DNA from: Azolla caroliniana
Lineage: Eukaryota; Plantae; Polypodiophyta
Length of the DNA: 36,920 nucleotides
Reading direction: 5' to 3'
NCBI GenBank assembly: GCA_043228905.1
Contig: JBHGNT010000304.1
Location: 1-36,920 of the forward strand
Part shown: in pieces, positions 1 through 36,920 of the stretch
Layout of the letters: each line of letters begins with the position of its first letter
How positions within the stretch are numbered: position 1 is the stretch's first letter
Made by a program: the position numbers and the translations under genes
Notes under the pieces: model-generated
Seen by the model: the letters and a program-made list of their open reading frames with translations, nothing else
The model's database searches: none
Told to the model about the DNA's origin: nothing

Positions 1-365
1 CTTTCGGAGCGCTCTTGTAGCTCTCGGATCTGCTTGTCGATGAAATCACCGCACTCTCGCCTCAGTTCCTCGTCACGTGGCTCATCGCGACCACGGCTAC
101 GACGTTCCCTTTCCTCTTCGGAGTCTCTCTTGTTGTCTCTGTAGCGGCGCCCCTCCTCAAGGAACCCCTCACGACGTCGCTCGCGCCTCTCGTCATCGCA
201 CTCCCCCTCTCGGCGTCGATCGCGCCTCTCCTCGTCAATGTCTCCCTCACGACGTCGATCGCGTCGCTCCTCTTCACGGTCCCGCCCTACAGACCTAGCA
301 TTGGCCGCGGTACACGCGGCGAGCATGATCACGGCCATGAGGAATACGGAAGTAAGCTTTGCCAT
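1..365 (-). CDS. 2S albumin-like Arg/Glu-rich storage protein precursor, 5' part (3' end outside window)
   Basis: ATG at 363-365 (minus strand). Sequence matches the 5' part (1656-2020) of the first complete copy and is truncated by the window edge. Confidence 0.85.
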   Translation of the reverse strand, partial: MAKLTSVFLMAVIMLAACTAANARSVGRDREEERRDRRREGDIDEERRDRRREGECDDERRERRREGFLEEGRRYRDNKRDSEEERERRSRGRDEPRDEELRRECGDFIDKQIRELQERSE

Positions 366-431
366 TGCGATTGTCCTTATGATCCCGGTGCTTGTCTCCT
401 AATGGATTGTATTGACATTGCTCCCTCCACC

Positions 432-442
432 TTTAATATATA
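432..442 (-). promoter_or_regulatory. TATA box (TATATATTAAA on minus strand); recurs every 1,655 bp
   Basis: AT-only run 67-77 bp upstream of the ATG at 365, in otherwise mixed or GC-rich sequence. Position fits a short 5' UTR. Confidence 0.75.
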
Positions 443-444
443 CA

Positions 445-474
445 CATGGCCATGCAATCAGAGCACATGCATGT
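445..474. promoter_or_regulatory. RY/Sph elements (CATGCA 451-456; CATGCATG 466-473) in a legumin-box-like context; recurs every 1,655 bp
   Basis: Perfect RY octamer inside the palindrome ACATGCATGT, plus CATGGCCATGCAA, directly upstream of the TATA box. RY is the established binding site of B3-domain ABI3/VP1, FUS3 and LEC2 factors in storage-protein promoters. Confidence 0.75.
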
Positions 475-496
475 CACTCACCACTCCCATTACCAT

Positions 497-563
497 AACG
501 TGTGTGTCCTGCGTACAACTCTTGCCCAAGACCCATACCAACTAGTCCACCCTCCCACACGTC
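497..563. promoter_or_regulatory. ACGT-core (ABRE-like) elements AACGTGT (497-503) and CACACGTC (556-563); recur every 1,655 bp
   Basis: bZIP-type ACGT cores about 130-200 bp upstream of the ATG and next to the RY elements. The motifs are short, so chance matches are possible. Confidence 0.45.
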
Positions 564-718
564 TAGGCTAGTCCTAGGTGTCGTATTGTCACCAGACAAT
601 CTGGGCGCAACCTGTAGCGGGTACTCCTCCTCCTCGCGCGAGAGCTTGTCGAGCAACATAACATTTATACATACATAGGTAAATGTGCGCACTCGCGCGT
701 GCGCGTAGGGGTGTGCGG

Positions 719-726
719 GCACGTGC
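719..726. promoter_or_regulatory. G-box GCACGTGC; recurs every 1,655 bp
   Basis: Perfect palindromic CACGTG (720-725) about 355 bp upstream of the ATG. Confidence 0.4.
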
Positions 727-1073
727 ACATTAAACTAGAACGCGCTAGTGCCGAGACACTAAGCACGCGGAGGCTACTGCGGGACGAGTGGTGGCTCCCG
801 AGTGTGCTACATCGATGAACGTAGATAGACCGGTGTCCGTACTCGCTCGTTCGGACGGACGAGGGGTTGGTAACGACGACGACAAGGAAAGCTAACCGGA
901 CTACCACACTAGGAGTGTCCTATCGGGCAAGTGTGGAAGCAAGTTCACATTCGCCGCGTGTACAAGTTGACCTTAGCCTTAGCCGTTGCCGTGGCGTGTG
1001 CGGTATGGGTGTCCTGCTTTGATGTTTTTTTTTCCGTTTGGGTGGTTTGCGGTCCCTATAGGCAAATTCTATG

Positions 1074-1135
1074 CGTTGGTGCTCGTGTTTACGTTCGTGT
1101 TGGAGGGACGTTGGTGCTCGTGTTTACGTTCGTGT
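1074..1135. repeat. Exact 27-bp direct repeat (CGTTGGTGCTCGTGTTTACGTTCGTGT x2, 35-bp period) in the 3' flank; present in every unit
   Basis: Copies at 1074-1100 and 1109-1135, separated by TGGAGGGA. Confidence 0.95.
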
Positions 1136-1222
1136 GGGTGTAATGCGCGATTGGGGAGACGCACTTGTTCGTAAACACTTACGAGAAATTAGAGAGAGAC
1201 CACGAGAATAATTTGAACAAGG

Positions 1223-1228
1223 TTTATG
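1223..1228 (-). terminator. Possible polyadenylation near-upstream element (CATAAA) just after the stop codon
   Basis: One mismatch from AATAAA, followed on the minus strand by U/C-rich sequence. Plant poly(A) signals are degenerate, so this is weak. Confidence 0.25.
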
Positions 1229-1234
1229 TACTAT

Positions 1235-2020
1235 TTAGAAGCGACGAATACAAGCACGAGGGCGAAGATCGCACTGTTGGAGTAGGCGGGAGGCGGCGAC
1301 GCCTAGAGCTCTTTCCTCGTCATCGGCCTTGAATTGGCGACGTTGTTGACGTTCGTCCTCTTGTCGTCGAGACATGCGGTGGCGGCGTTCGTCACCCTCT
1401 CGTCGCTCACGGCTGCTATCTCTCTCGCGCTCCTCGTCCTCTTCCTCCCAGCTACGGTGTTCCCTTGATTGTTGGCCATGGCGTCGGCCTTCATCATTGC
1501 GTCGTTCCTCCTCGTCAGCATACAAGGCATCACGTAGGCGATCGCATCGATCTTCGGCGGGGATTCGTTCGACGTTCCTGCAGCACCGTTCCGAGGGTCT
1601 TGAGTATCGAGTGTTTTCGATCCATGGGGAGCGACGTCCTTGTTCACCTTCCTCTCTTTCGGAGCGCTCTTGTAGCTCTCGGATCTGCTTGTCGATGAAA
1701 TCACCGCACTCTCGCCTCAGTTCCTCGTCACGTGGCTCATCGCGACCACGGCTACGACGTTCCCTTTCCTCTTCGGAGTCTCTCTTGTTGTCTCTGTAGC
1801 GGCGCCCCTCCTCAAGGAACCCCTCACGACGTCGCTCGCGCCTCTCGTCATCGCACTCCCCCTCTCGGCGTCGATCGCGCCTCTCCTCGTCAATGTCTCC
1901 CTCACGACGTCGATCGCGTCGCTCCTCTTCACGGTCCCGCCCTACAGACCTAGCATTGGCCGCGGTACACGCGGCGAGCATGATCACGGCCATGAGGAAT
2001 ACGGAAGTAAGCTTTGCCAT
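1235..2020 (-). CDS. 2S albumin-like (prolamin superfamily) Arg/Glu-rich seed/spore storage protein precursor, 261 aa, copy 1
   Basis: Longest ORF in the unit, with plant-like start context caATGGC. Hydrophobic signal peptide MAKLTSVFLMAVIMLAACTAANA ends in an A-x-A site. Cys skeleton C105, C146-C147 (PSERCC), D157-R-C159, C250 (LLQQC), C257. About 26% Arg and 19% Glu by hand count. TATA and RY elements lie directly upstream. Family call comes from motif recognition, not a database search. Confidence 0.85.
   Translation of the reverse strand: MAKLTSVFLMAVIMLAACTAANARSVGRDREEERRDRRREGDIDEERRDRRREGECDDERRERRREGFLEEGRRYRDNKRDSEEERERRSRGRDEPRDEELRRECGDFIDKQIRELQERSEREEGEQGRRSPWIENTRYSRPSERCCRNVERIPAEDRCDRLRDALYADEEERRNDEGRRHGQQSREHRSWEEEDEERERDSSRERREGDERRHRMSRRQEDERQQRRQFKADDEERALGVAASRLLQQCDLRPRACIRRF
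1820..1936 (-). repeat. Intragenic 39-bp (13-aa) tandem repeat x3: DREEERRDRRREG / DIDEERRDRRREG / ECDDERRERRREG; present in every copy
   Basis: Visible in the translation (residues 29-67) and in the DNA (ccctcacgacgtcg recurs). Two more degenerate units may follow (residues 68-93). Confidence 0.85.
1952..2020 (-). other. Signal-peptide coding segment (residues 1-23); present in every copy
   Basis: Basic n-region (K3), hydrophobic core VFLMAVIMLAA, then A-N-A before RSVGR, then an abrupt switch to charged sequence. Confidence 0.85.
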
Positions 2021-2889
2021 TGCGATTGTCCTTATGATCCCGGTGCTTGTCTCCTAATGGATTGTATTGACATTGCTCCCTCCACCTTTAATATATACAC
2101 ATGGCCATGCAATCAGAGCACATGCATGTCACTCACCACTCCCATTACCATAACGTGTGTGTCCTGCGTACAACTCTTGCCCAAGACCCATACCAACTAG
2201 TCCACCCTCCCACACGTCTAGGCTAGTCCTAGGTGTCGTATTGTCACCAGACAATCTGGGCGCAACCTGTAGCGGGTACTCCTCCTCCTCGCGCGAGAGC
2301 TTGTCGAGCAACATAACATTTATACATACATAGGTAAATGTGCGCACTCGCGCGTGCGCGTAGGGGTGTGCGGGCACGTGCACATTAAACTAGAACGCGC
2401 TAGTGCCGAGACACTAAGCACGCGGAGGCTACTGCGGGACGAGTGGTGGCTCCCGAGTGTGCTACATCGATGAACGTAGATAGACCGGTGTCCGTACTCG
2501 CTCGTTCGGACGGACGAGGGGTTGGTAACGACGACGACAAGGAAAGCTAACCGGACTACCACACTAGGAGTGTCCTATCGGGCAAGTGTGGAAGCAAGTT
2601 CACATTCGCCGCGTGTACAAGTTGACCTTAGCCTTAGCCGTTGCCGTGGCGTGTGCGGTATGGGTGTCCTGCTTTGATGTTTTTTTTTCCGTTTGGGTGG
2701 TTTGCGGTCCCTATAGGCAAATTCTATGCGTTGGTGCTCGTGTTTACGTTCGTGTTGGAGGGACGTTGGTGCTCGTGTTTACGTTCGTGTGGGTGTAATG
2801 CGCGATTGGGGAGACGCACTTGTTCGTAAACACTTACGAGAAATTAGAGAGAGACCACGAGAATAATTTGAACAAGGTTTATGTACTAT

Positions 2890-10295: not shown

Positions 10296-11164
10296 TGCGA
10301 TTGTCCTTATGATCCCGGTGCTTGTCTCCTAATGGATTGTATTGACATTGCTCCCTCCACCTTTAATATATACACATGGCCATGCAATCAGAGCACATGC
10401 ATGTCACTCACCACTCCCATTACCATAACGTGTGTGTCCTGCGTACAACTCTTGCCCAAGACCCATACCAACTAGTCCACCCTCCCACACGTCTAGGCTA
10501 GTCCTAGGTGTCGTATTGTCACCAGACAATCTGGGCGCAACCTGTAGCGGGTACTCCTCCTCCTCGCGCGAGAGCTTGTCGAGCAACATAACATTTATAC
10601 ATACATAGGTAAATGTGCGCACTCGCGCGTGCGCGTAGGGGTGTGCGGGCACGTGCACATTAAACTAGAACGCGCTAGTGCCGAGACACTAAGCACGCGG
10701 AGGCTACTGCGGGACGAGTGGTGGCTCCCGAGTGTGCTACATCGATGAACGTAGATAGACCGGTGTCCGTACTCGCTCGTTCGGACGGACGAGGGGTTGG
10801 TAACGACGACGACAAGGAAAGCTAACCGGACTACCACACTAGGAGTGTCCTATCGGGCAAGTGTGGAAGCAAGCTCACATTCGCCGCGTGTACAAGTTGA
10901 CCTTAGCCTTAGCCGTTGCCGTGGCGTGTGCGGTATGGGTGTCCTGCTTTGATGTTTTTTTTTCCGTTTGGGTGGTTTGCGGTCCCTATAGGCAAATTCT
11001 ATGCGTTGGTGCTCGTGTTTACGTTCGTGTTGGAGGGACGTTGGTGCTCGTGTTTACGTTCGTGTGGGTGTAATGCGCGATTGGGGAGACGCACTTGTTC
11101 GTAAACACTTACGAGAAATTAGAGAGAGACCACGAGAATAATTTGAACAACGTTTATGTACTAT

Positions 11165-11950
11165 TTAGAAGCGACGAATACAAGCACGAGGGCGAAGATC
11201 GCACTGTTGGAGTAGGCGGGAGGCGGCGACGCCTAGAGCTCTTTCCTCGTCATCGGCCTTGAATTGGCGACGTTGTTGACGTTCGTCCTCTTGTCGTCGA
11301 GACATGCGGTGGCGGCGTTCGTCACCCTCTCGTCGCTCACGGCTGCTATCTCTCTCGCGCTCCTCGTCCTCTTCCTCCCAGCTACGGTGTTCCCTTGATT
11401 GTTGGCCATGGCGTCGGCCTTCATCATTGCGTCGTTCCTCCTCGTCAGCATACAAGGCATCACGTAGGCGATCGCATCGATCTTCGGCGGGGATTCGTTC
11501 GACGTTCCTGCAGCACCGTTCCGAGGGTCTTGAGTATCGAGTGTTTTCGATCCATGGGGAGCGACGTCCTTGTTCACCTTCCTCTCTTTCGGAGCGCTCT
11601 TGTAGCTCTCGGATCTGCTTGTCGATGAAATCACCGCACTCTCGCCTCAGTTCCTCGTCACGTGGCTCATCGCGACCACGGCTACGACGTTCCCTTTCCT
11701 CTTCGGAGTCTCTCTTGTTGTCTCTGTAGCGGCGCCCCTCCTCAAGGAACCCCTCACGACGTCGCTCGCGCCTCTCGTCATCGCACTCCCCCTCTCGGCG
11801 TCGATCGCGCCTCTCCTCGTCAATGTCTCCCTCACGACGTCGATCGCGTCGCTCCTCTTCACGGTCCCGCCCTACAGACCTAGCATTGGCCGCGGTACAC
11901 GCGGCGAGCATGATCACGGCCATGAGGAATACGGAAGTAAGCTTTGCCAT
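11165..11950 (-). CDS. 2S albumin-like storage protein precursor, copy 7
   Basis: Translation identical to copy 1; 3' flank carries G>C at 11151. Confidence 0.85.
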   Translation of the reverse strand: MAKLTSVFLMAVIMLAACTAANARSVGRDREEERRDRRREGDIDEERRDRRREGECDDERRERRREGFLEEGRRYRDNKRDSEEERERRSRGRDEPRDEELRRECGDFIDKQIRELQERSEREEGEQGRRSPWIENTRYSRPSERCCRNVERIPAEDRCDRLRDALYADEEERRNDEGRRHGQQSREHRSWEEEDEERERDSSRERREGDERRHRMSRRQEDERQQRRQFKADDEERALGVAASRLLQQCDLRPRACIRRF

Positions 11951-12819
11951 TGCGATTGTCCTTATGATCCCGGTGCTTGTCTCCTAATGGATTGTATTGA
12001 CATTGCTCCCTCCACCTTTAATATATACACATGGCCATGCAATCAGAGCACATGCATGTCACTCACCACTCCCATTACCATAACGTGTGTGTCCTGCGTA
12101 CAACTCTTGCCCAAGACCCATACCAACTAGTCCACCCTCCCACACGTCTAGGCTAGTCCTAGGTGTCGTATTGTCACCAGACAATCTGGGCGCAACCTGT
12201 AGCGGGTACTCCTCCTCCTCGCGCGAGAGCTTGTCGAGCAACATAACATTTATACATACATAGGTAAATGTGCGCACTCGCGCGTGCGCGTAGGGGTGTG
12301 CGGGCACGTGCACATTAAACTAGAACGCGCTAGTGCCGAGACACTAAGCACGCGGAGGCTACTGCGGGACGAGTGGTGGCTCCCGAGTGTGCTACATCGA
12401 TGAACGTAGATAGACCGGTGTCCGTACTCGCTCGTTCGGACGGACGAGGGGTTGGTAACGACGACGACAAGGAAAGCTAACCGGACTACCACACTAGGAG
12501 TGTCCTATCGGGCAAGTGTGGAAGCAAGCTCACATTCGCCGCGTGTACAAGTTGACCTTAGCCTTAGCCGTTGCCGTGGCGTGTGCGGTATGGGTGTCCT
12601 GCTTTGATGTTTTTTTTTCCGTTTGGGTGGTTTGCGGTCCCTATAGGCAAATTCTATGCGTTGGTGCTCGTGTTTACGTTCGTGTTGGAGGGACGTTGGT
12701 GCTCGTGTTTACGTTCGTGTGGGTGTAATGCGCGATTGGGGAGACGCACTTGTTCGTAAACACTTACGAGAAATTAGAGAGAGACCACGAGAATAATTTG
12801 AACAACGTTTATGTACTAT

Positions 12820-13605
12820 TTAGAAGCGACGAATACAAGCACGAGGGCGAAGATCGCACTGTTGGAGTAGGCGGGAGGCGGCGACGCCTAGAGCTCTTTC
12901 CTCGTCATCGGCCTTGAATTGGCGACGTTGTTGACGTTCGTCCTCTTGTCGTCGAGACATGCGGTGGCGGCGTTCGTCACCCTCTCGTCGCTCACGGCTG
13001 CTATCTCTCTCGCGCTCCTCGTCCTCTTCCTCCCAGCTACGGTGTTCCCTTGATTGTTGGCCATGGCGTCGGCCTTCATCATTGCGTCGTTCCTCCTCGT
13101 CAGCATACAAGGCATCACGTAGGCGATCGCATCGATCTTCGGCGGGGATTCGTTCGACGTTCCTGCAGCACCGTTCCGAGGGTCTTGAGTATCGAGTGTT
13201 TTCGATCCATGGGGAGCGACGTCCTTGTTCACCTTCCTCTCTTTCGGAGCGCTCTTGTAGCTCTCGGATCTGCTTGTCGATGAAATCACCGCACTCTCGC
13301 CTCAGTTCCTCGTCACGTGGCTCATCGCGACCACGGCTACGACGTTCCCTTTCCTCTTCGGAGTCTCTCTTGTTGTCTCTGTAGCGGCGCCCCTCCTCAA
13401 GGAACCCCTCACGACGTCGCTCGCGCCTCTCGTCATCGCACTCCCCCTCTCGGCGTCGATCGCGCCTCTCCTCGTCAATGTCTCCCTCACGACGTCGATC
13501 GCGTCGCTCCTCTTCACGGTCCCGCCCTACAGACCTAGCATTGGCCGCGGTACACGCGGCGAGCATGATCACGGCCATGAGGAATACGGAAGTAAGCTTT
13601 GCCAT
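12820..13605 (-). CDS. 2S albumin-like storage protein precursor, copy 8
   Basis: Translation identical to copy 1; 3' flank carries G>C at 12806. Confidence 0.85.
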   Translation of the reverse strand: MAKLTSVFLMAVIMLAACTAANARSVGRDREEERRDRRREGDIDEERRDRRREGECDDERRERRREGFLEEGRRYRDNKRDSEEERERRSRGRDEPRDEELRRECGDFIDKQIRELQERSEREEGEQGRRSPWIENTRYSRPSERCCRNVERIPAEDRCDRLRDALYADEEERRNDEGRRHGQQSREHRSWEEEDEERERDSSRERREGDERRHRMSRRQEDERQQRRQFKADDEERALGVAASRLLQQCDLRPRACIRRF

Positions 13606-14474
13606 TGCGATTGTCCTTATGATCCCGGTGCTTGTCTCCTAATGGATTGTATTGACATTGCTCCCTCCACCTTTAATATATACACATGGCCATGCAATCA
13701 GAGCACATGCATGTCACTCACCACTCCCATTACCATAACGTGTGTGTCCTGCGTACAACTCTTGCCCAAGACCCATACCAACTAGTCCACCCTCCCACAC
13801 GTCTAGGCTAGTCCTAGGTGTCGTATTGTCACCAGACAATCTGGGCGCAACCTGTAGCGGGTACTCCTCCTCCTCGCGCGAGAGCTTGTCGAGCAACATA
13901 ACATTTATACATACATAGGTAAATGTGCGCACTCGCGCGTGCGCGTAGGGGTGTGCGGGCACGTGCACATTAAACTAGAACGCGCTAGTGCCGAGACACT
14001 AAGCACGCGGAGGCTACTGCGGGACGAGTGGTGGCTCCCGAGTGTGCTACATCGATGAACGTAGATAGACCGGTGTCCGTACTCGCTCGTTCGGACGGAC
14101 GAGGGGTTGGTAACGACGACGACAAGGAAAGCTAACCGGACTACCACACTAGGAGTGTCCTATCGGGCAAGTGTGGAAGCAAGCTCACATTCGCCGCGTG
14201 TACAAGTTGACCTTAGCCTTAGCCGTTGCCGTGGCGTGTGCGGTATGGGTGTCCTGCTTTGATGTTTTTTTTTCCGTTTGGGTGGTTTGCGGTCCCTATA
14301 GGCAAATTCTATGCGTTGGTGCTCGTGTTTACGTTCGTGTTGGAGGGACGTTGGTGCTCGTGTTTACGTTCGTGTGGGTGTAATGCGCGATTGGGGAGAC
14401 GCACTTGTTCGTAAACACTTACGAGAAATTAGAGAGAGACCACGAGAATAATTTGAACAAGGTTTATGTACTAT

Positions 14475-15260
14475 TTAGAAGCGACGAATACAAGCACGAG
14501 GGCGAAGATCGCACTGTTGGAGTAGGCGGGAGGCGGCGACGCCTAGAGCTCTTTCCTCGTCATCGGCCTTGAATTGGCGACGTTGTTGACGTTCGTCCTC
14601 TTGTCGTCGAGACATGCGGTGGCGGCGTTCGTCACCCTCTCGTCGCTCACGGCTGCTATCTCTCTCGCGCTCCTCGTCCTCTTCCTCCCAGCTACGGTGT
14701 TCCCTTGATTGTTGGCCATGGCGTCGGCCTTCATCATTGCGTCGTTCCTCCTCGTCAGCATACAAGGCATCACGTAGGCGATCGCATCGATCTTCGGCGG
14801 GGATTCGTTCGACGTTCCTGCAGCACCGTTCCGAGGGTCTTGAGTATCGAGTGTTTTCGATCCATGGGGAGCGACGTCCTTGTTCACCTTCCTCTCTTTC
14901 GGAGCGCTCTTGTAGCTCTCGGATCTGCTTGTCGATGAAATCACCGCACTCTCGCCTCAGTTCCTCGTCACGTGGCTCATCGCGACCACGGCTACGACGT
15001 TCCCTTTCCTCTTCGGAGTCTCTCTTGTTGTCTCTGTAGCGGCGCCCCTCCTCAAGGAACCCCTCACGACGTCGCTCGCGCCTCTCGTCATCGCACTCCC
15101 CCTCTCGGCGTCGATCGCGCCTCTCCTCGTCAATGTCTCCCTCACGACGTCGATCGCGTCGCTCCTCTTCACGGTCCCGCCCTACAGACCTAGCATTGGC
15201 CGCGGTACACGCGGCGAGCATGATCACGGCCATGAGGAATACGGAAGTAAGCTTTGCCAT
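14475..15260 (-). CDS. 2S albumin-like storage protein precursor, copy 9
   Basis: Translation identical to copy 1. Confidence 0.85.
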   Translation of the reverse strand: MAKLTSVFLMAVIMLAACTAANARSVGRDREEERRDRRREGDIDEERRDRRREGECDDERRERRREGFLEEGRRYRDNKRDSEEERERRSRGRDEPRDEELRRECGDFIDKQIRELQERSEREEGEQGRRSPWIENTRYSRPSERCCRNVERIPAEDRCDRLRDALYADEEERRNDEGRRHGQQSREHRSWEEEDEERERDSSRERREGDERRHRMSRRQEDERQQRRQFKADDEERALGVAASRLLQQCDLRPRACIRRF

Positions 15261-16129
15261 TGCGATTGTCCTTATGATCCCGGTGCTTGTCTCCTAATGG
15301 ATTGTATTGACATTGCTCCCTCCACCTTTAATATATACACATGGCCATGCAATCAGAGCACATGCATGTCACTCACCACTCCCATTACCATAACGTGTGT
15401 GTCCTGCGTACAACTCTTGCCCAAGACCCATACCAACTAGTCCACCCTCCCACACGTCTAGGCTAGTCCTAGGTGTCGTATTGTCACCAGACAATCTGGG
15501 CGCAACCTGTAGCGGGTACTCCTCCTCCTCGCGCGAGAGCTTGTCGAGCAACATAACATTTATACATACATAGGTAAATGTGCGCACTTGCGCGTGCGCG
15601 TAGGGGTGTGCGGGCACGTGCACATTAAACTAGAACGCGCTAGTGCCGAGACACTAAGCACGCGGAGGCTACTGCGGGACGAGTGGTGGCTCCCGAGTGT
15701 GCTACATCGATGAACGTAGATAGACCGGTGTCCGTACTCGCTCGTTCGGACGGACGAGGGGTTGGTAACGACGACGACAAGGAAAGCTAACCGGACTACC
15801 ACACTAGGAGTGTCCTATCGGGCAAGTGTGGAAGCAAGCTCACATTCGCCGCGTGTACAAGTTGACCTTAGCCTTAGCCGTTGCCGTGGCGTGTGCGGTA
15901 TGGGTGTCCTGCTTTGATGTTTTTTTTTCCGTTTGGGTGGTTTGCGGTCCCTATAGGCAAATTCTATGCGTTGGTGCTCGTGTTTACGTTCGTGTTGGAG
16001 GGACGTTGGTGCTCGTGTTTACGTTCGTGTGGGTGTAATGCGCGATTGGGGAGACGCACTTGTTCGTAAACACTTACGAGAAATTAGAGAGAGACCACGA
16101 GAATAATTTGAACAAGGTTTATGTACTAT

Positions 16130-21094: not shown

Positions 21095-21880
21095 TTAGAA
21101 GCGACGAATACAAGCACGAGGGCGAAGATCGCACTGTTGGAGTAGGCGGGAGGCGGCGACGCCTAGAGCTCTTTCCTCGTCATCGGCCTTGAATTGGCGA
21201 CGTTGTTGACGTTCGTCCTCTTGTCGTCGAGACATGCGGTGGCGGCGTTCGTCACCCTCTCGTCGCTCACGGCTGCTATCTCTCTCGCGCTCCTCGTCCT
21301 CTTCCTCCCGGCTACGGTGTTCCCTTGATTGTTGGCCATGGCGTCGGCCTTCATCATTGCGTCGTTCCTCCTCGTCAGCATACAAGGCATCACGTAGGCG
21401 ATCGCATCGATCTTCGGCGGGGATTCGTTCGACGTTCCTGCAGCACCGTTCCGAGGGTCTTGAGTATCGAGTGTTTTCGATCCATGGGGAGCGACGTCCT
21501 TGTTCACCTTCCTCTCTTTCGGAGCGCTCTTGTAGCTCTCGGATCTGCTTGTCGATGAAATCACCGCACTCTCGCCTCAGTTCCTCGTCACGTGGCTCAT
21601 CGCGACCACGGCTACGACGTTCCCTTTCCTCTTCGGAGTCTCTCTTGTTGTCTCTGTAGCGGCGCCCCTCCTCAAGGAACCCCTCACGACGTCGCTCGCG
21701 CCTCTCGTCATCGCACTCCCCCTCTCGGCGTCGATCGCGCCTCTCCTCGTCAATGTCTCCCTCACGACGTCGATCGCGTCGCTCCTCTTCACGGTCCCGC
21801 CCTACAGACCTAGCATTGGCCGCGGTACACGCGGCGAGCATGATCACGGCCATGAGGAATACGGAAGTAAGCTTTGCCAT
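21095..21880 (-). CDS. 2S albumin-like storage protein precursor, copy 13 (W191R variant)
   Basis: Same as copy 1 except A>G at 21310. Confidence 0.85.
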   Translation of the reverse strand: MAKLTSVFLMAVIMLAACTAANARSVGRDREEERRDRRREGDIDEERRDRRREGECDDERRERRREGFLEEGRRYRDNKRDSEEERERRSRGRDEPRDEELRRECGDFIDKQIRELQERSEREEGEQGRRSPWIENTRYSRPSERCCRNVERIPAEDRCDRLRDALYADEEERRNDEGRRHGQQSREHRSREEEDEERERDSSRERREGDERRHRMSRRQEDERQQRRQFKADDEERALGVAASRLLQQCDLRPRACIRRF

Positions 21881-22749
21881 TGCGATTGTCCTTATGATCC
21901 CGGTGCTTGTCTCCTAATGGATTGTATTGACATTGCTCCCTCCACCTTTAATATATACACATGGCCATGCAATCAGAGCACATGCATGTCACTCACCACT
22001 CCCATTACCATAACGTGTGTGTCCTGCGTACAACTCTTGCCCAAGACCCATACCAACTAGTCCACCCTCCCACACGTCTAGGCTAGTCCTAGGTGTCGTA
22101 TTGTCACCAGACAATCTGGGCGCAACCTGTAGCGGGTACTCCTCCTCCTCGCGCGAGAGCTTGTCGAGCAACATAACATTTATACATACATAGGTAAATG
22201 TGCGCACTCGCGCGTGCGCGTAGGGGTGTGCGGGCACGTGCACATTAAACTAGAACGCGCTAGTGCCGAGACACTAAGCACGCGGAGGCTACTGCGGGAC
22301 GAGTGGTGGCTCCCGAGTGTGCTACATCGATGAACGTAGATAGACCGGTGTCCGTACTCGCTCGTTCGGACGGACGAGGGGTTGGTAACGACGACGACAA
22401 GGAAAGCTAACCGGACTACCACACTAGGAGTGTCCTATCGGGCAAGTGTGGAAGCAAGTTCACATTCGCCGCGTGTACAAGTTGACCTTAGCCTTAGCCG
22501 TTGCCGTGGCGTGTGCGGTATGGGTGTCCTGCTTTGATGTTTTTTTTTCCGTTTGGGTGGTTTGCGGTCCCTATAGGCAAATTCTATGCGTTGGTGCTCG
22601 TGTTTACGTTCGTGTTGGAGGGACGTTGGTGCTCGTGTTTACGTTCGTGTGGGTGTAATGCGCGATTGGGGAGACGCACTTGTTCGTAAACACTTACGAG
22701 AAATTAGAGAGAGACCACGAGAATAATTTGAACAAGGTTTATGTACTAT

Positions 22750-23535
22750 TTAGAAGCGACGAATACAAGCACGAGGGCGAAGATCGCACTGTTGGAGTAG
22801 GCGGGAGGCGGCGACGCCTAGAGCTCTTTCCTCGTCATCGGCCTTGAATTGGCGACGTTGTTGACGTTCGTCCTCTTGTCGTCGAGACATGCGGTGGCGG
22901 CGTTCGTCACCCTCTCGTCGCTCACGGCTGCTATCTCTCTCGCGCTCCTCGTCCTCTTCCTCCCGGCTACGGTGTTCCCTTGATTGTTGGCCATGGCGTC
23001 GGCCTTCATCATTGCGTCGTTCCTCCTCGTCAGCATACAAGGCATCACGTAGGCGATCGCATCGATCTTCGGCGGGGATTCGTTCGACGTTCCTGCAGCA
23101 CCGTTCCGAGGGTCTTGAGTATCGAGTGTTTTCGATCCATGGGGAGCGACGTCCTTGTTCACCTTCCTCTCTTTCGGAGCGCTCTTGTAGCTCTCGGATC
23201 TGCTTGTCGATGAAATCACCGCACTCTCGCCTCAGTTCCTCGTCACGTGGCTCATCGCGACCACGGCTACGACGTTCCCTTTCCTCTTCGGAGTCTCTCT
23301 TGTTGTCTCTGTAGCGGCGCCCCTCCTCAAGGAACCCCTCACGACGTCGCTCGCGCCTCTCGTCATCGCACTCCCCCTCTCGGCGTCGATCGCGCCTCTC
23401 CTCGTCAATGTCTCCCTCACGACGTCGATCGCGTCGCTCCTCTTCACGGTCCCGCCCTACAGACCTAGCATTGGCCGCGGTACACGCGGCGAGCATGATC
23501 ACGGCCATGAGGAATACGGAAGTAAGCTTTGCCAT
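22750..23535 (-). CDS. 2S albumin-like storage protein precursor, copy 14 (W191R variant)
   Basis: Same as copy 1 except A>G at 22965. Confidence 0.85.
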   Translation of the reverse strand: MAKLTSVFLMAVIMLAACTAANARSVGRDREEERRDRRREGDIDEERRDRRREGECDDERRERRREGFLEEGRRYRDNKRDSEEERERRSRGRDEPRDEELRRECGDFIDKQIRELQERSEREEGEQGRRSPWIENTRYSRPSERCCRNVERIPAEDRCDRLRDALYADEEERRNDEGRRHGQQSREHRSREEEDEERERDSSRERREGDERRHRMSRRQEDERQQRRQFKADDEERALGVAASRLLQQCDLRPRACIRRF

Positions 23536-24404
23536 TGCGATTGTCCTTATGATCCCGGTGCTTGTCTCCTAATGGATTGTATTGACATTGCTCCCTCCAC
23601 CTTTAATATATACACATGGCCATGCAATCAGAGCACATGCATGTCACTCACCACTCCCATTACCATAACGTGTGTGTCCTGCGTACAACTCTTGCCCAAG
23701 ACCCATACCAACTAGTCCACCCTCCCACACGTCTAGGCTAGTCCTAGGTGTCGTATTGTCACCAGACAATCTGGGCGCAACCTGTAGCGGGTACTCCTCC
23801 TCCTCGCGCGAGAGCTTGTCGAGCAACATAACATTTATACATACATAGGTAAATGTGCGCACTCGCGCGTGCGCGTAGGGGTGTGCGGGCACGTGCACAT
23901 TAAACTAGAACGCGCTAGTGCCGAGACACTAAGCACGCGGAGGCTACTGCGGGACGAGTGGTGGCTCCCGAGTGTGCTACATCGATGAACGTAGATAGAC
24001 CGGTGTCCGTACTCGCTCGTTCGGACGGACGAGGGGTTGGTAACGACGACGACAAGGAAAGCTAACCGGACTACCACACTAGGAGTGTCCTATCGGGCAA
24101 GTGTGGAAGCAAGTTCACATTCGCCGCGTGTACAAGTTGACCTTAGCCTTAGCCGTTGCCGTGGCGTGTGCGGTATGGGTGTCCTGCTTTGATGTTTTTT
24201 TTTCCGTTTGGGTGGTTTGCGGTCCCTATAGGCAAATTCTATGCGTTGGTGCTCGTGTTTACGTTCGTGTTGGAGGGACGTTGGTGCTCGTGTTTACGTT
24301 CGTGTGGGTGTAATGCGCGATTGGGGAGACGCACTTGTTCGTAAACACTTACGAGAAATTAGAGAGAGACCACGAGAATAATTTGAACAAGGTTTATGTA
24401 CTAT

Positions 24405-25190
24405 TTAGAAGCGACGAATACAAGCACGAGGGCGAAGATCGCACTGTTGGAGTAGGCGGGAGGCGGCGACGCCTAGAGCTCTTTCCTCGTCATCGGCCTT
24501 GAATTGGCGACGTTGTTGACGTTCGTCCTCTTGTCGTCGAGACATGCGGTGGCGGCGTTCGTCACCCTCTCGTCGCTCACGGCTGCTATCTCTCTCGCGC
24601 TCCTCGTCCTCTTCCTCCCAGCTATGGTGTTCCCTTGATTGTTGGCCATGGCGTCGGCCTTCATCATTGCGTCGTTCCTCCTCGTCAGCATACAAGGCAT
24701 CACGTAGGCGATCGCATCGATCTTCGGCGGGGATTCGTTCGACGTTCCTGCAGCACCGTTCCGAGGGTCTTGAGTATCGAGTGTTTTCGATCCATGGGGA
24801 GCGACGTCCTTGTTCACCTTCCTCTCTTTCGGAGCGCTCTTGTAGCTCTCGGATCTGCTTGTCGATGAAATCACCGCACTCTCGCCTCAGTTCCTCGTCA
24901 CGTGGCTCATCGCGACCACGGCTACGACGTTCCCTTTCCTCTTCGGAGTCTCTCTTGTTGTCTCTGTAGCGGCGCCCCTCCTCAAGGAACCCCTCACGAC
25001 GTCGCTCGCGCCTCTCGTCATCGCACTCCCCCTCTCGGCGTCGATCGCGCCTCTCCTCGTCAATGTCTCCCTCACGACGTCGATCGCGTCGCTCCTCTTC
25101 ACGGTCCCGCCCTACAGACCTAGCATTGGCCGCGGTACACGCGGCGAGCATGATCACGGCCATGAGGAATACGGAAGTAAGCTTTGCCAT
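24405..25190 (-). CDS. 2S albumin-like storage protein precursor, copy 15 (R189H variant)
   Basis: Same as copy 1 except C>T at 24625 (CGT>CAT). Confidence 0.85.
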   Translation of the reverse strand: MAKLTSVFLMAVIMLAACTAANARSVGRDREEERRDRRREGDIDEERRDRRREGECDDERRERRREGFLEEGRRYRDNKRDSEEERERRSRGRDEPRDEELRRECGDFIDKQIRELQERSEREEGEQGRRSPWIENTRYSRPSERCCRNVERIPAEDRCDRLRDALYADEEERRNDEGRRHGQQSREHHSWEEEDEERERDSSRERREGDERRHRMSRRQEDERQQRRQFKADDEERALGVAASRLLQQCDLRPRACIRRF

Positions 25191-26059
25191 TGCGATTGTC
25201 CTTATGATCCCGGTGCTTGTCTCCTAATGGATTGTATTGACATTGCTCCCTCCACCTTTAATATATACACATGGCCATGCAATCAGAGCACATGCATGTC
25301 ACTCACCACTCCCATTACCATAACGTGTGTGTCCTGCGTACAACTCTTGCCCAAGACCCATACCAACTAGTCCACCCTCCCACACGTCTAGGCTAGTCCT
25401 AGGTGTCGTATTGTCACCAGACAATCTGGGCGCAACCTGTAGCGGGTACTCCTCCTCCTCGCGCGAGAGCTTGTCGAGCAACATAACATTTATACATACA
25501 TAGGTAAATGTGCGCACTCGCGCGTGCGCGTAGGGGTGTGCGGGCACGTGCACATTAAACTAGAACGCGCTAGTGCCGAGACACTAAGCACGCGGAGGCT
25601 ACTGCGGGACGAGTGGTGGCTCCCGAGTGTGCTACATCGATGAACGTAGATAGACCGGTGTCCGTACTCGCTCGTTCGGACGGACGAGGGGTTGGTAACG
25701 ACGACGACAAGGAAAGCTAACCGGACTACCACACTAGGAGTGTCCTATCGGGCAAGTGTGGAAGCAAGTTCACATTCGCCGCGTGTACAAGTTGACCTTA
25801 GCCTTAGCCGTTGCCGTGGCGTGTGCGGTATGGGTGTCCTGCTTTGATGTTTTTTTTTCCGTTTGGGTGGTTTGCGGTCCCTATAGGCAAATTCTATGCG
25901 TTGGTGCTCGTGTTTACGTTCGTGTTGGAGGGACGTTGGTGCTCGTGTTTACGTTCGTGTGGGTGTAATGCGCGATTGGGGAGACGCACTTGTTCGTAAA
26001 CACTTACGAGAAATTAGAGAGAGACCACGAGAATAATTTGAACAAGGTTTATGTACTAT

Positions 26060-26845
26060 TTAGAAGCGACGAATACAAGCACGAGGGCGAAGATCGCACT
26101 GTTGGAGTAGGCGGGAGGCGGCGACGCCTAGAGCTCTTTCCTCGTCATCGGCCTTGAATTGGCGACGTTGTTGACGTTCGTCCTCTTGTCGTCGAGACAT
26201 GCGGTGGCGGCGTTCGTCACCCTCTCGTCGCTCACGGCTGCTATCTCTCTCGCGCTCCTCGTCCTCTTCCTCCCAGCTATGGTGTTCCCTTGATTGTTGG
26301 CCATGGCGTCGGCCTTCATCATTGCGTCGTTCCTCCTCGTCAGCATACAAGGCATCACGTAGGCGATCGCATCGATCTTCGGCGGGGATTCGTTCGACGT
26401 TCCTGCAGCACCGTTCCGAGGGTCTTGAGTATCGAGTGTTTTCGATCCATGGGGAGCGACGTCCTTGTTCACCTTCCTCTCTTTCGGAGCGCTCTTGTAG
26501 CTCTCGGATCTGCTTGTCGATGAAATCACCGCACTCTCGCCTCAGTTCCTCGTCACGTGGCTCATCGCGACCACGGCTACGACGTTCCCTTTCCTCTTCG
26601 GAGTCTCTCTTGTTGTCTCTGTAGCGGCGCCCCTCCTCAAGGAACCCCTCACGACGTCGCTCGCGCCTCTCGTCATCGCACTCCCCCTCTCGGCGTCGAT
26701 CGCGCCTCTCCTCGTCAATGTCTCCCTCACGACGTCGATCGCGTCGCTCCTCTTCACGGTCCCGCCCTACAGACCTAGCATTGGCCGCGGTACACGCGGC
26801 GAGCATGATCACGGCCATGAGGAATACGGAAGTAAGCTTTGCCAT
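26060..26845 (-). CDS. 2S albumin-like storage protein precursor, copy 16 (R189H variant)
   Basis: Same as copy 1 except C>T at 26280. Confidence 0.85.
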   Translation of the reverse strand: MAKLTSVFLMAVIMLAACTAANARSVGRDREEERRDRRREGDIDEERRDRRREGECDDERRERRREGFLEEGRRYRDNKRDSEEERERRSRGRDEPRDEELRRECGDFIDKQIRELQERSEREEGEQGRRSPWIENTRYSRPSERCCRNVERIPAEDRCDRLRDALYADEEERRNDEGRRHGQQSREHHSWEEEDEERERDSSRERREGDERRHRMSRRQEDERQQRRQFKADDEERALGVAASRLLQQCDLRPRACIRRF

Positions 26846-27714
26846 TGCGATTGTCCTTATGATCCCGGTGCTTGTCTCCTAATGGATTGTATTGACATTG
26901 CTCCCTCCACCTTTAATATATACACATGGCCATGCAATCAGAGCACATGCATGTCACTCACCACTCCCATTACCATAACGTGTGTGTCCTGCGTACAACT
27001 CTTGCCCAAGACCCATACCAACTAGTCCACCCTCCCACACGTCTAGGCTAGTCCTAGGTGTCGTATTGTCACCAGACAATCTGGGCGCAACCTGTAGCGG
27101 GTACTCCTCCTCCTCGCGCGAGAGCTTGTCGAGCAACATAACATTTATACATACATAGGTAAATGTGCGCACTCGCGCGTGCGCGTAGGGGTGTGCGGGC
27201 ACGTGCACATTAAACTAGAACGCGCTAGTGCCGAGACACTAAGCACGCGGAGGCTACTGCGGGACGAGTGGTGGCTCCCGAGTGTGCTACATCGATGAAC
27301 GTAGATAGACCGGTGTCCGTACTCGCTCGTTCGGACGGACGAGGGGTTGGTAACGACGACGACAAGGAAAGCTAACCGGACTACCACACTAGGAGTGTCC
27401 TATCGGGCAAGTGTGGAAGCAAGTTCACATTCGCCGCGTGTACAAGTTGACCTTAGCCTTAGCCGTTGCCGTGGCGTGTGCGGTATGGGTGTCCTGCTTT
27501 GATGTTTTTTTTTCCGTTTGGGTGGTTTGCGGTCCCTATAGGCAAATTCTATGCGTTGGTGCTCGTGTTTACGTTCGTGTTGGAGGGACGTTGGTGCTCG
27601 TGTTTACGTTCGTGTGGGTGTAATGCGCGATTGGGGAGACGCACTTGTTCGTAAACACTTACGAGAAATTAGAGAGAGACCACGAGAATAATTTGAACAA
27701 GGTTTATGTACTAT

Positions 27715-28500
27715 TTAGAAGCGACGAATACAAGCACGAGGGCGAAGATCGCACTGTTGGAGTAGGCGGGAGGCGGCGACGCCTAGAGCTCTTTCCTCGT
27801 CATCGGCCTTGAATTGGCGACGTTGTTGACGTTCGTCCTCTTGTCGTCGAGACATGCGGTGGCGGCGTTCGTCACCCTCTCGTCGCTCACGGCTGCTATC
27901 TCTCTCGCGCTCCTCGTCCTCTTCCTCCCGGCTACGGTGTTCCCTTGATTGTTGGCCATGGCGTCGGCCTTCATCATTGCGTCGTTCCTCCTCGTCAGCA
28001 TACAAGGCATCACGTAGGCGATCGCATCGATCTTCGGCGGGGATTCGTTCGACGTTCCTGCAGCACCGTTCCGAGGGTCTTGAGTATCGAGTGTTTTCGA
28101 TCCATGGGGAGCGACGTCCTTGTTCACCTTCCTCTCTTTCGGAGCGCTCTTGTAGCTCTCGGATCTGCTTGTCGATGAAATCACCGCACTCTCGCCTCAG
28201 TTCCTCGTCACGTGGCTCATCGCGACCACGGCTACGACGTTCCCTTTCCTCTTCGGAGTCTCTCTTGTTGTCTCTGTAGCGGCGCCCCTCCTCAAGGAAC
28301 CCCTCACGACGTCGCTCGCGCCTCTCGTCATCGCACTCCCCCTCTCGGCGTCGATCGCGCCTCTCCTCGTCAATGTCTCCCTCACGACGTCGATCGCGTC
28401 GCTCCTCTTCACGGTCCCGCCCTACAGACCTAGCATTGGCCGCGGTACACGCGGCGAGCATGATCACGGCCATGAGGAATACGGAAGTAAGCTTTGCCAT
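27715..28500 (-). CDS. 2S albumin-like storage protein precursor, copy 17 (W191R variant)
   Basis: Same as copy 1 except A>G at 27930. Confidence 0.85.
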   Translation of the reverse strand: MAKLTSVFLMAVIMLAACTAANARSVGRDREEERRDRRREGDIDEERRDRRREGECDDERRERRREGFLEEGRRYRDNKRDSEEERERRSRGRDEPRDEELRRECGDFIDKQIRELQERSEREEGEQGRRSPWIENTRYSRPSERCCRNVERIPAEDRCDRLRDALYADEEERRNDEGRRHGQQSREHRSREEEDEERERDSSRERREGDERRHRMSRRQEDERQQRRQFKADDEERALGVAASRLLQQCDLRPRACIRRF

Positions 28501-33465: not shown

Positions 33466-34334
33466 TGCGATTGTCCTTATGATCCCGGTGCTTGTCTCCT
33501 AATGGATTGTATTGACATTGCTCCCTCCACCTTTAATATATACACATGGCCATGCAATCAGAGCACATGCATGTCACTCACCACTCCCATTACCATAACG
33601 TGTGTGTCCTGCGTACAACTCTTGCCCAAGACCCATACCAACTAGTCCACCCTCCCACACGTCTAGGCTAGTCCTAGGTGTCGTATTGTCACCAGACAAT
33701 CTGGGCGCAACCTGTAGCGGGTACTCCTCCTCCTCGCGCGAGAGCTTGTCGAGCAACATAACATTTATACATACATAGGTAAATGTGCGCACTCGCGCGT
33801 GCGCGTAGGGGTGTGCGGGCACGTGCACATTAAACTAGAACGCGCTAGTGCCGAGACACTAAGCACGCGGAGGCTACTGCGGGACGAGTGGTGGCTCCCG
33901 AGTGTGCTACATCGATGAACGTAGATAGACCGGTGTCCGTACTCGCTCGTTCGGACGGACGAGGGGTTGGTAACGACGACGACAAGGAAAGCTAACCGGA
34001 CTACCACACTAGGAGTGTCCTATCGGGCAAGTGTGGAAGCAAGTTCACATTCGCCGCGTGTACAAGTTGACCTTAGCCTTAGCCGTTGCCGTGGCGTGTG
34101 CGGTATGGGTGTCCTGCTTTGATGTTTTTTTTTCCGTTTGGGTGGTTTGCGGTCCCTATAGGCAAATTCTATGCGTTGGTGCTCGTGTTTACGTTCGTGT
34201 TGGAGGGACGTTGGTGCTCGTGTTTACGTTCGTGTGGGTGTAATGCGCGATTGGGGAGACGCACTTGTTCGTAAACACTTACGAGAAATTAGAGAGAGAC
34301 CACGAGAATAATTTGAACAAGGTTTATGTACTAT

Positions 34335-35120
34335 TTAGAAGCGACGAATACAAGCACGAGGGCGAAGATCGCACTGTTGGAGTAGGCGGGAGGCGGCGAC
34401 GCCTAGAGCTCTTTCCTCGTCATCGGCCTTGAATTGGCGACGTTGTTGACGTTCGTCCTCTTGTCGTCGAGACATGCGGTGGCGGCGTTCGTCACCCTCT
34501 CGTCGCTCACGGCTGCTATCTCTCTCGCGCTCCTCGTCCTCTTCCTCCCAGCTACGGTGTTCCCTTGATTGTTGGCCATGGCGTCGGCCTTCATCATTGC
34601 GTCGTTCCTCCTCGTCAGCATACAAGGCATCACGTAGGCGATCGCATCGATCTTCGGCGGGGATTCGTTCGACGTTCCTGCAGCACCGTTCCGAGGGTCT
34701 TGAGTATCGAGTGTTTTCGATCCATGGGGAGCGACGTCCTTGTTCACCTTCCTCTCTTTCGGAGCGCTCTTGTAGCTCTCGGATCTGCTTGTCGATGAAA
34801 TCACCGCACTCTCGCCTCAGTTCCTCGTCACGTGGCTCATCGCGACCACGGCTACGACGTTCCCTTTCCTCTTCGGAGTCTCTCTTGTTGTCTCTGTAGC
34901 GGCGCCCCTCCTCAAGGAACCCCTCACGACGTCGCTCGCGCCTCTCGTCATCGCACTCCCCCTCTCGGCGTCGATCGCGCCTCTCCTCGTCAATGTCTCC
35001 CTCACGACGTCGATCGCGTCGCTCCTCTTCACGGTCCCGCCCTACAGACCTAGCATTGGCCGCGGTACACGCGGCGAGCATGATCACGGCCATGAGGAAT
35101 ACGGAAGTAAGCTTTGCCAT
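34335..35120 (-). CDS. 2S albumin-like storage protein precursor, copy 21
   Basis: Translation identical to copy 1. Confidence 0.85.
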   Translation of the reverse strand: MAKLTSVFLMAVIMLAACTAANARSVGRDREEERRDRRREGDIDEERRDRRREGECDDERRERRREGFLEEGRRYRDNKRDSEEERERRSRGRDEPRDEELRRECGDFIDKQIRELQERSEREEGEQGRRSPWIENTRYSRPSERCCRNVERIPAEDRCDRLRDALYADEEERRNDEGRRHGQQSREHRSWEEEDEERERDSSRERREGDERRHRMSRRQEDERQQRRQFKADDEERALGVAASRLLQQCDLRPRACIRRF

Positions 35121-35989
35121 TGCGATTGTCCTTATGATCCCGGTGCTTGTCTCCTAATGGATTGTATTGACATTGCTCCCTCCACCTTTAATATATACAC
35201 ATGGCCATGCAATCAGAGCACATGCATGTCACTCACCACTCCCATTACCATAACGTGTGTGTCCTGCGTACAACTCTTGCCCAAGACCCATACCAACTAG
35301 TCCACCCTCCCACACGTCTAGGCTAGTCCTAGGTGTCGTATTGTCACCAGACAATCTGGGCGCAACCTGTAGCGGGTACTCCTCCTCCTCGCGCGAGAGC
35401 TTGTCGAGCAACATAACATTTATACATACATAGGTAAATGTGCGCACTCGCGCGTGCGCGTAGGGGTGTGCGGGCACGTGCACATTAAACTAGAACGCGC
35501 TAGTGCCGAGACACTAAGCACGCGGAGGCTACTGCGGGACGAGTGGTGGCTCCCGAGTGTGCTACATCGATGAACGTAGATAGACCGGTGTCCGTACTCG
35601 CTCGTTCGGACGGACGAGGGGTTGGTAACGACGACGACAAGGAAAGCTAACCGGACTACCACACTAGGAGTGTCCTATCGGGCAAGTGTGGAAGCAAGTT
35701 CACATTCGCCGCGTGTACAAGTTGACCTTAGCCTTAGCCGTTGCCGTGGCGTGTGCGGTATGGGTGTCCTGCTTTGATGTTTTCTTTTCCGTTTGGGTGG
35801 TTTGCGGTCCCTATAGGCAAATTCTATGCGTTGGTGCTCGTGTTTACGTTCGTGTTGGAGGGACGTTGGTGCTCGTGTTTACGTTCGTGTGGGTGTAATG
35901 CGCGATTGGGGAGACGCACTTGTTCGTAAACACTTACGAGAAATTAGAGAGAGACCACGAGAATAATTTGAACAAGGTTTATGTACTAT

Positions 35990-36775
35990 TTAGAAGCGAC
36001 GAATACAAGCACGAGGGCGAAGATCGCACTGTTGGAGTAGGCGGGAGGCGGCGACGCCTAGAGCTCTTTCCTCGTCATCGGCCTTGAATTGGCGACGTTG
36101 TTGACGTTCGTCCTCTTGTCGTCGAGACATGCGGTGGCGGCGTTCGTCACCCTCTCGTCGCTCACGGCTGCTATCTCTCTCGCGCTCCTCGTCCTCTTCC
36201 TCCCAGCTACGGTGTTCCCTTGATTGTTGGCCATGGCGTCGGCCTTCATCATTGCGTCGTTCCTCCTCGTCAGCATACAAGGCATCACGTAGGCGATCGC
36301 ATCGATCTTCGGCGGGGATTCGTTCGACGTTCCTGCAGCACCGTTCCGAGGGTCTTGAGTATCGAGTGTTTTCGATCCATGGGGAGCGACGTCCTTGTTC
36401 ACCTTCCTCTCTTTCGGAGCGCTCTTGTAGCTCTCGGATCTGCTTGTCGATGAAATCACCGCACTCTCGCCTCAGTTCCTCGTCACGTGGCTCATCGCGA
36501 CCACGGCTACGACGTTCCCTTTCCTCTTCGGAGTCTCTCTTGTTGTCTCTGTAGCGGCGCCCCTCCTCAAGGAACCCCTCACGACGTCGCTCGCGCCTCT
36601 CGTCATCGCACTCCCCCTCTCGGCGTCGATCGCGCCTCTCCTCGTCAATGTCTCCCTCACGACGTCGATCGCGTCGCTCCTCTTCACGGTCCCGCCCTAC
36701 AGACCTAGCATTGGCCGCGGTACACGCGGCGAGCATGATCACGGCCATGAGGAATACGGAAGTAAGCTTTGCCAT
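35990..36775 (-). CDS. 2S albumin-like storage protein precursor, copy 22
   Basis: Translation identical to copy 1. Confidence 0.85.
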   Translation of the reverse strand: MAKLTSVFLMAVIMLAACTAANARSVGRDREEERRDRRREGDIDEERRDRRREGECDDERRERRREGFLEEGRRYRDNKRDSEEERERRSRGRDEPRDEELRRECGDFIDKQIRELQERSEREEGEQGRRSPWIENTRYSRPSERCCRNVERIPAEDRCDRLRDALYADEEERRNDEGRRHGQQSREHRSWEEEDEERERDSSRERREGDERRHRMSRRQEDERQQRRQFKADDEERALGVAASRLLQQCDLRPRACIRRF

Positions 36776-36920
36776 TGCGATTGTCCTTATGATCCCGGTG
36801 CTTGTCTCCTAATGGATTGTATTGACATTGCTCCCTCCACCTTTAATATATACACATGGCCATGCAATCAGAGCACATGCATGTCACTCACCACTCCCAT
36901 TACCATAACGTGTGTGTCCT

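Follow-up and report, generated by a model that had tools for sequence, protein, structure and literature searches.

A compact tandem array of a gene for an Arg/Glu-rich prolamin-superfamily protein, likely present in hundreds of copies

It is rare for a protein-coding gene to form a uniform array with copies in the hundreds. The plant storage-gene clusters in the literature compared here run to tens of copies, are rich in pseudogenes and have long spacers filled with transposons. At the omega-secalin locus Sec-1 of rye, a 9-kb unit that includes a retrotransposon piece is present about 15 times (PMC3273464), and the alpha-gliadins of the wheat Gli-2 loci are estimated at 25–150 copies, with 21 pseudogenes out of 47 and transposon-bearing spacers of 10–245 kb (PMC5980091). 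Here we describe a stretch of 36,920 bp labelled Azolla caroliniana (contig JBHGNT010000304.1), referred to in its full length as the window, which consists of a 1,655-bp gene-plus-spacer unit repeated head to tail. We judge it probable that the window samples a real, likely chromosomal array of likely hundreds of copies, in which a compact gene encodes a secreted, Arg/Glu-rich protein of the prolamin superfamily that likely stores nitrogen for spores (or seeds), and that unequal exchange between neighbours likely keeps the copies uniform.

The array within the window and in independent samples

Compared with itself at a lag of 1,655 bp, the whole window was 99.96% identical, corresponding to 22.31 units. 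The HindIII sequence AAGCTT recurs at 354 + 1,655k, and every spacing between its 23 sites is 1,655 bp; the window therefore has no indels or insertions. All 22 complete minus-strand open reading frames (ORFs; 1235–2020 + 1,655k) are intact, each encoding 261 aa and together specifying three distinct proteins, and gene copy number 23 is cut at 1–365. Six of the 1,655 columns of the unit are variable (15 variant bases), four in the 869-bp spacer and two in the 786-bp coding sequence (CDS). Units differ pairwise by a mean of 1.2 bases, a within-array diversity of 0.07%. The window is thus as the initial annotation had described it, with about 22.3 units in one orientation, 22 intact ORFs free of indels and insertions, a spacer as homogeneous as the coding sequence, and a single HindIII cut per unit (354–359). 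Both CDS variants are non-synonymous and lie in a low-complexity linker (W191R in four copies, R189H in two). Because there are just two, and two random CDS changes would bring no nonsense change with P = 0.91, ORF intactness alone carries no weight for selection. Terminal inverted repeats and long direct repeats were searched for in the unit and none were found, so it bears no transposon sign. Separately, the unit (366–2020) is not depleted in CpG (observed/expected 1.13 in the spacer and 1.36 in the CDS), which would fit either rapid turnover or little methylation.

Of the 24 listed sequencing runs, 18 contained half or more of the unit's words, and two of these carried a possible-source flag; the 20 runs with unit words stem from 14 studies. 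Four runs not flagged as source (X4, X11, X13 and X14) were examined in detail, and all 30 bins of the unit were covered in each of them. Single contigs bridging the whole spacer into both neighbouring genes were present in two of the four, running with 0 differences from the 3' part of one gene to the start of the next (X11 record 1, 1,326 bp at depth 580; X4 record 25, 1,018 bp at depth 14). In X13 and X14 the spacer was covered by shorter pieces with 0–1 differences, at depths of 5,450–7,437. A contig of a separate metagenome assembly (L001) is 99.2% identical to the unit and also reads gene–spacer–gene. This independent contig carries the allele seen as a singleton at position 35784 of the window, which is therefore not a read error. 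Given gene–spacer–gene contigs in independent samples, a concatemer artefact is very unlikely, and the window array is very likely real rather than a product of assembly. The second gene copy of L001 is 15 bp (five codons) shorter in its 39-bp repeat region (about 1630–1650), either a variant or a local assembly slip.

Copy number, diverged unit types and mode of evolution

We inferred copy number from the depth of single assembled contigs, not raw reads, by comparing the array with a low-copy baseline among the longest records of each run (337 and 109 further records were left out). The coverages given in SPAdes contig names (332–657) come with no baseline, so we drew no copy numbers from them. 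Contigs of diverged paralogues served as the baseline, with depths of 2–4.7 in X11, 7.2–10.7 in X13 and 8.5–21 in X14; AT-rich non-array DNA in X13, homologous to the far half of locus L004, had a similarly low depth of 8.2–8.4, as against 6,841–7,437 for the array. The array-to-baseline ratio was 124–290 in X11, 639–1,027 in X13 and 206–656 in X14, that is, in all three runs with a baseline (X4 had none). Indirect as contig depth is, ratios of 124–1,027 correspond to copy numbers in the hundreds, as in ribosomal DNA (rDNA)-type arrays. If the baseline is single-copy, the unit is likely present in hundreds of copies, occupying 0.2–1.5 Mb. The initial annotation had expected a true number above the roughly 23 copies of the window, which these ratios support, and had named a concatemer, or a gene of one to few copies, as what would overturn it; independent tandem contigs and depths 120–1,000 times the baseline speak against both.

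The unit seen in the window (type A) is one of several. From 187 pattern matches, four loci were confirmed (L001–L004). Two of them represent further unit types, type B (L002) and type C (L003; a unit of 1,857 bp with an intact ORF of about 294 aa), with a CDS identity of 93%. Both contigs close on themselves through terminal overlaps (37 bp and 67 bp, respectively), i.e., they are tandem units, and each unit, like that of type A, has one HindIII site. The spacers are 0.85–0.97 kb long, and those of types B and C are only 58%–72% alike, both mutually and against type A. A type-C-like spacer occurred beside type A at depths of 7.1 (X4), 95.6 (X11) and 2,434–2,820 (X13), and the ratio of type A to type C depth was 2.0, 2.6–2.8 and 6.1 in three runs, which may differ in species. 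In X14 the type-C spacer was uncovered, a hole that we do not take as absence. More deep variants of the unit were present in the same runs.

Between types, dN/dS was 0.12–0.14 in all three comparisons (Fisher p of 3e-6 to 2e-10), which indicates that the coding sequence is under purifying selection. Within the window, eight adjacent unit pairs have variants in common (permutation p of about 1e-5, resting on the unit order of the assembly). Tandem units in one orientation, spacers that are uniform within arrays and diverged between them, and variants shared by neighbours are all features of rDNA-type arrays, and uniformity within types, divergence between them and neighbour-shared variants form the pattern expected of concerted evolution or of repeated array turnover. 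Concerted evolution of a selected gene is therefore likely. The initial annotation had left the choice between concerted evolution and a very recent amplification; neighbour-clustered variants and diverged, internally uniform tandem types favour the former over one recent burst, and the data are compatible with both slow homogenisation and repeated recent bursts.

Some side observations concern the type-C spacer. At L004:600–1317, a type-C-like spacer runs into AT-rich DNA at a depth of about 8 in X13, where position 496 is joined to 1151, also at depth 8; this may be the edge of an array or an orphan copy. A tRNA-like stretch with an A-box and B-box lies in the type-C spacer (L004:535–612 on the minus strand, and partly L003 at about 1650–1710); judged by eye from these boxes, it resembles a SINE. 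Rfam and ARAGORN gave no match on L001–L004. The spacer also contains a CT microsatellite with a duplicated piece of 3' flank (L003, about 1120–1165), and the human RNU2 unit likewise includes a CT microsatellite (PMC5687341).

The encoded protein and its promoter

Hydropathy along the 261-aa protein peaks at 2.95 at residue 7 and reaches at most 1.07 beyond residue 30, leaving one hydrophobic N-terminal segment. By this measure the protein has a predicted signal peptide, as 2S albumins do, and the region is kept in types B and C and in the paralogue P0001. The composition is extreme, with 26% Arg and 19% Glu, giving 1.96 nitrogen atoms per residue or 21.9% nitrogen by mass. The profile PF00234 scored 21.7 bits on the whole protein, equal to its curated cut-off of 21.7, and 23.3 bits on residues 100–261, which places the predicted protein in the prolamin superfamily.

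Six cysteines (105, 146, 147, 159, 250 and 257) are retained in both type C and paralogue P0003 (42% identity). The linkers between them range over 41–93 and 64–125 residues (the C159–C250 gap being 64, 91 or 125). A further cysteine of type A, C56, is Tyr in types B and C, and D/E-R-C stands in place of CxC. The two cysteines absent from the usual eight would presumably form one disulfide pair. The 2S-albumin motif has eight cysteines in the order C..C../..CC..CxC..C..C (PMC4366206). Judging from the cysteine scaffold and composition, the protein is not a canonical 2S albumin, though it likely functions in a similar way, so that of the 2S albumin named in the initial annotation the superfamily stands and the canonical identity does not.

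Two AlphaFold2 models consisted of long helices (pTM 0.41 and 0.32), with a pLDDT below 50 in the cysteine core, and say little about the five-helix, disulfide-bonded fold typical of 2S albumins. Protein searches returned only P0001, P0002 and P0003, none with an informative name. A Pfam Conotoxin match (E-value of 0.06) was rejected, as it is below the cut-off and spans the signal-peptide region. P0001 is a diverged paralogue whose likeness stops near residue 98 and that has no cysteine core, likely a frameshifted low-copy relic.

Upstream of the gene lie candidate RY, TATA and G-box elements (Table 1). Napin and 2S promoters are known to contain both RY and G boxes, to which FUSCA3 binds (PMC5487486). 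Expression was assessed in two runs of one study (X19 and X20; RNA by guess, from related organism C and an unspecified tissue), which were compared with L004 only. In X20, where the 3' flank is type-B-like, the 3' end of the coding sequence reached a depth of at least 4,100 and the contig leading into the spacer a depth of 19.5, and one contig ended in an A-run about 20 nt past the stop codon. Depth in X19 was 8–37. These values hint at strong, sample-specific transcription in a relative. For the type-A unit itself the listed runs included no RNA run with its words, and two runs under the same organism label (X23 and X24) had next to none of them, which is evidence in neither direction. Loose ends at L004:85 and L004:133 (X13, X14, X19 and X20) belong to further paralogues, with another C-terminus and 3' flank; this family is deep in X14 (record depth of 6,202) and occurs in X19 as well as X20, both RNA-like.

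Table 1. Features of the window (1–36,920) and the basis of each assignment
Position	Strand	Feature	Basis or remark
1..36920	-	Tandem array of type A, 22.31 copies of a 1,655-bp unit	Lag identity and variant analysis; both ends cut by the window
1..365	-	5' part of first gene copy, cut at left window end	ORF list
366..1234	-	869-bp spacer, from 3' flank of one copy into promoter of the next	
1235..2020	-	First complete intronless CDS (261 aa), recurring every 1,655 bp in 22 complete copies	ORF analysis
1214..1234	-	Likely short 3' untranslated region	Weak; homologous poly(A)-like end, one loose end in X20
1250..1273	-	Cysteine core, last part (C250, C257)	C-X6-C, spaced as in type C and P0003
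1544..1708	-	Cysteine core, first part (C105, C146-C147, C159); D-R-C replaces C-X-C	
1820..1936	-	Three 39-bp internal repeats encoding an Arg/Glu/Asp-rich N-terminal extension	
1949..2020	-	Predicted signal peptide, about residues 1-24, putative cleavage site	Hydropathy
2087..2098	-	TATA-like box, about 67-78 bp upstream of the ATG at 2020	In types A, B and C
2106..2128	.	Two RY boxes, CATGCA (2106-2111) and CATGCATG (2121-2128); likely B3/LAFL sites	Invariant in 3 of 3 unit types
2375..2380	.	G-box CACGTG, 355 bp upstream of the ATG	CACGT core retained in types B and C
10874..17494	.	Block of units 7-11 with common spacer variant at phase 944 (T>C); phase 1221 also common to units 7-8	
19655..27930	.	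Block of units 12-17 with CDS variants W191R (12-14, 17) and R189H (15-16)	
35990..36775	-	Last complete CDS copy	ORF analysis

Interpretation and comparison with known systems

In the explanation we favour, a homogenised array that supplies a nitrogen store, each unit, with its promoter (RY boxes, TATA box), intronless CDS and short 3' flank, would be transcribed on its own and specifically during maturation. LAFL/B3 factors would activate many copies together during spore or seed filling, and the high copy number would give a high transcription rate within a short window of time, a layout that would allow fast production of a protein reserve. The precursor would enter the endoplasmic reticulum, form three disulfides (the pairing within the six-cysteine core being our assumption) and then be stored and trimmed in the vacuole, its Arg-rich linkers lifting nitrogen to about 22% of the mass. 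Neighbouring copies would undergo unequal crossing-over or conversion, so that each array stays uniform while arrays diverge. A storage role and a chromosomal location appear likely; spore specificity and a benefit of dosage are putative. The locus offers a natural test of concerted evolution and of rDNA-like dosage of a Pol II gene without silencing.

Several points weigh against this explanation. The two CDS variants of the window each change an amino acid. Contig depth is no direct copy number, and the baseline is assumed to be single-copy; copy numbers halve if its contigs are heterozygous alleles. The proximal 170 bp of the promoter (86%–90% identity) are barely more conserved than synonymous sites (dS of 0.15–0.23), so conservation of the RY boxes is weak evidence. 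For transcription there is a single study, of a related organism, and a single contig with a poly(A)-like end; the depth of contigs reflects expression poorly. On the protein side, types B and C and P0003 score just below the PF00234 cut-off (19.0–20.7 bits), six of the eight cysteines of the 2S-albumin motif are present, the best PDB matches are cereal amylase/trypsin inhibitors (E-values of 0.18–1), and Atlas matches of 0.76–0.82 are leads only. Finally, protein output of the human macrosatellite RS447 is independent of copy number (PMC5687341), so a dosage benefit need not follow.

The main rival, which we consider unlikely, is a gene-derived satellite, that is, real arrays whose copy number drifts neutrally, with few active copies and the remaining ones silent passengers. 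The RS447 precedent (PMC5687341) would suit it, as would the tiny within-array diversity (0.07%) with its two non-synonymous CDS variants, and the type A to C depth ratio that varies across three runs (2.0, 2.6–2.8 and 6.1). However, at least three diverged types have each been amplified as a whole promoter–gene unit with a dN/dS of 0.12–0.14. Long-methylated satellites show CpG depletion, and the unit has none (observed/expected 1.13 and 1.36).

We regard as improbable a protein acting mainly in defence of the propagule, as an amylase/protease inhibitor or antimicrobial of the same superfamily, rather than as a nutrient store. Antifungal activity is found in some 2S albumins (PMC4366206), and the closest PDB sequences are cereal bifunctional inhibitors, but those matches are not significant (E-values of 0.18–0.98), the chain is mostly Arg/Glu filler of free length (64, 91 or 125 residues between C159 and C250), and the low dN/dS gives no sign of diversifying selection.

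Extrachromosomal circles, or in vivo rolling-circle amplification of the 1.6–1.9-kb unit, assembled as a linear array, are very improbable. The short-read contigs L002 and L003 do close on themselves, but collapsed tandem arrays yield the same closed contigs. While no read examined bridges the array and both flanks, a depth-8 contig in X13 links type-C spacer to low-copy AT-rich DNA; moreover, variants fall in blocks of neighbouring units, and the unit has no replication gene. Least probable of all, and largely refuted, is the concatenation of a gene of one to few copies during assembly or amplification. Near-perfect identity and open array ends in the window would allow it, but tandem contigs and 120–1,000-fold depth occur in samples not flagged as source, and a window singleton recurs in L001.

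Returning to the homogenised storage-gene array, for a fern host the spore rather than the seed is the likely storage site. A bolder version, which we find possible and view with slightly more doubt than belief, would have a seed-free plant loading its spores with a six-cysteine, Arg-packed relative of 2S albumins under a seed-type RY promoter, from several separately homogenised arrays of rDNA scale (hundreds of copies, 0.2–1.5 Mb each). The seed-storage programme would then predate seeds, the arrays would have been missed in fern genomes as they collapse in assembly, and gene dosage would serve as it does for ribosomal genes.

Matteuccin, a fern 2S albumin, was reportedly described by Rodin and Rask in 1990. 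The presence of 2S albumins in fern spores (PMC4973428) and the expression of LEC2-type (LAFL) genes in maturing fern spores (PMC5379062) are documented. For the seed-free plants of a survey published in 2023, which include one fern, the count of 2S albumins is 0 (PMC10006428 Supplementary Data 7). Should the host be a fern, the locus would supply a 2S-type spore storage protein at the gene level where that survey has none, would bear on a spore origin of the seed-maturation programme, and would illustrate that major genes can hide in collapsed arrays. The word "albumin" occurs 0 times in the main texts (supplements lay outside the search) of four fern papers (PMC6786969, PMC12400808, PMC9477723 and PMC8386757). 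Our literature search, which covered few supplements and no subscription journals, found no description of the array, and a prior description is possible.

Tandem storage genes are already known, and what is likely new here is the extreme compactness, uniformity and probable copy number. Rye Sec-1 is similar in that a prolamin-superfamily storage gene is repeated as a gene-plus-spacer unit (PMC3273464), and differs in that we see likely hundreds of 1.66-kb units, in several array types and without insertions. The storage genes of wheat Gli-2 have also expanded in tandem, whereas the spacers here measure 0.85–0.97 kb and are as uniform as the CDS; maize alpha-zeins (PMC3121756) and a Cycas vicilin-like array (PMC9023351) are further tandemly expanded storage genes. 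With 2S albumins, including fern matteuccin (compared by description only), the protein shares a signal peptide, PF00234, the C..CC..C..C..C scaffold, Arg/Glu richness and an RY promoter (PMC4366206, PMC4973428), but it has six rather than eight cysteines, 261–294 aa and long Arg/Glu inserts. In organization the closest parallels are rDNA and the human coding macrosatellites RS447/USP17, D4Z4/DUX4, TAF11-like and RNU2, which are likewise homogeneous tandem units with a spacer, variable copy number and concerted evolution (PMC5687341). The human coding macrosatellites comprise about 4–103 copies of 3.4–4.8 kb (PMC5687341), whereas the array described here repeats a plant Pol II structural gene in what are likely rDNA-like numbers.

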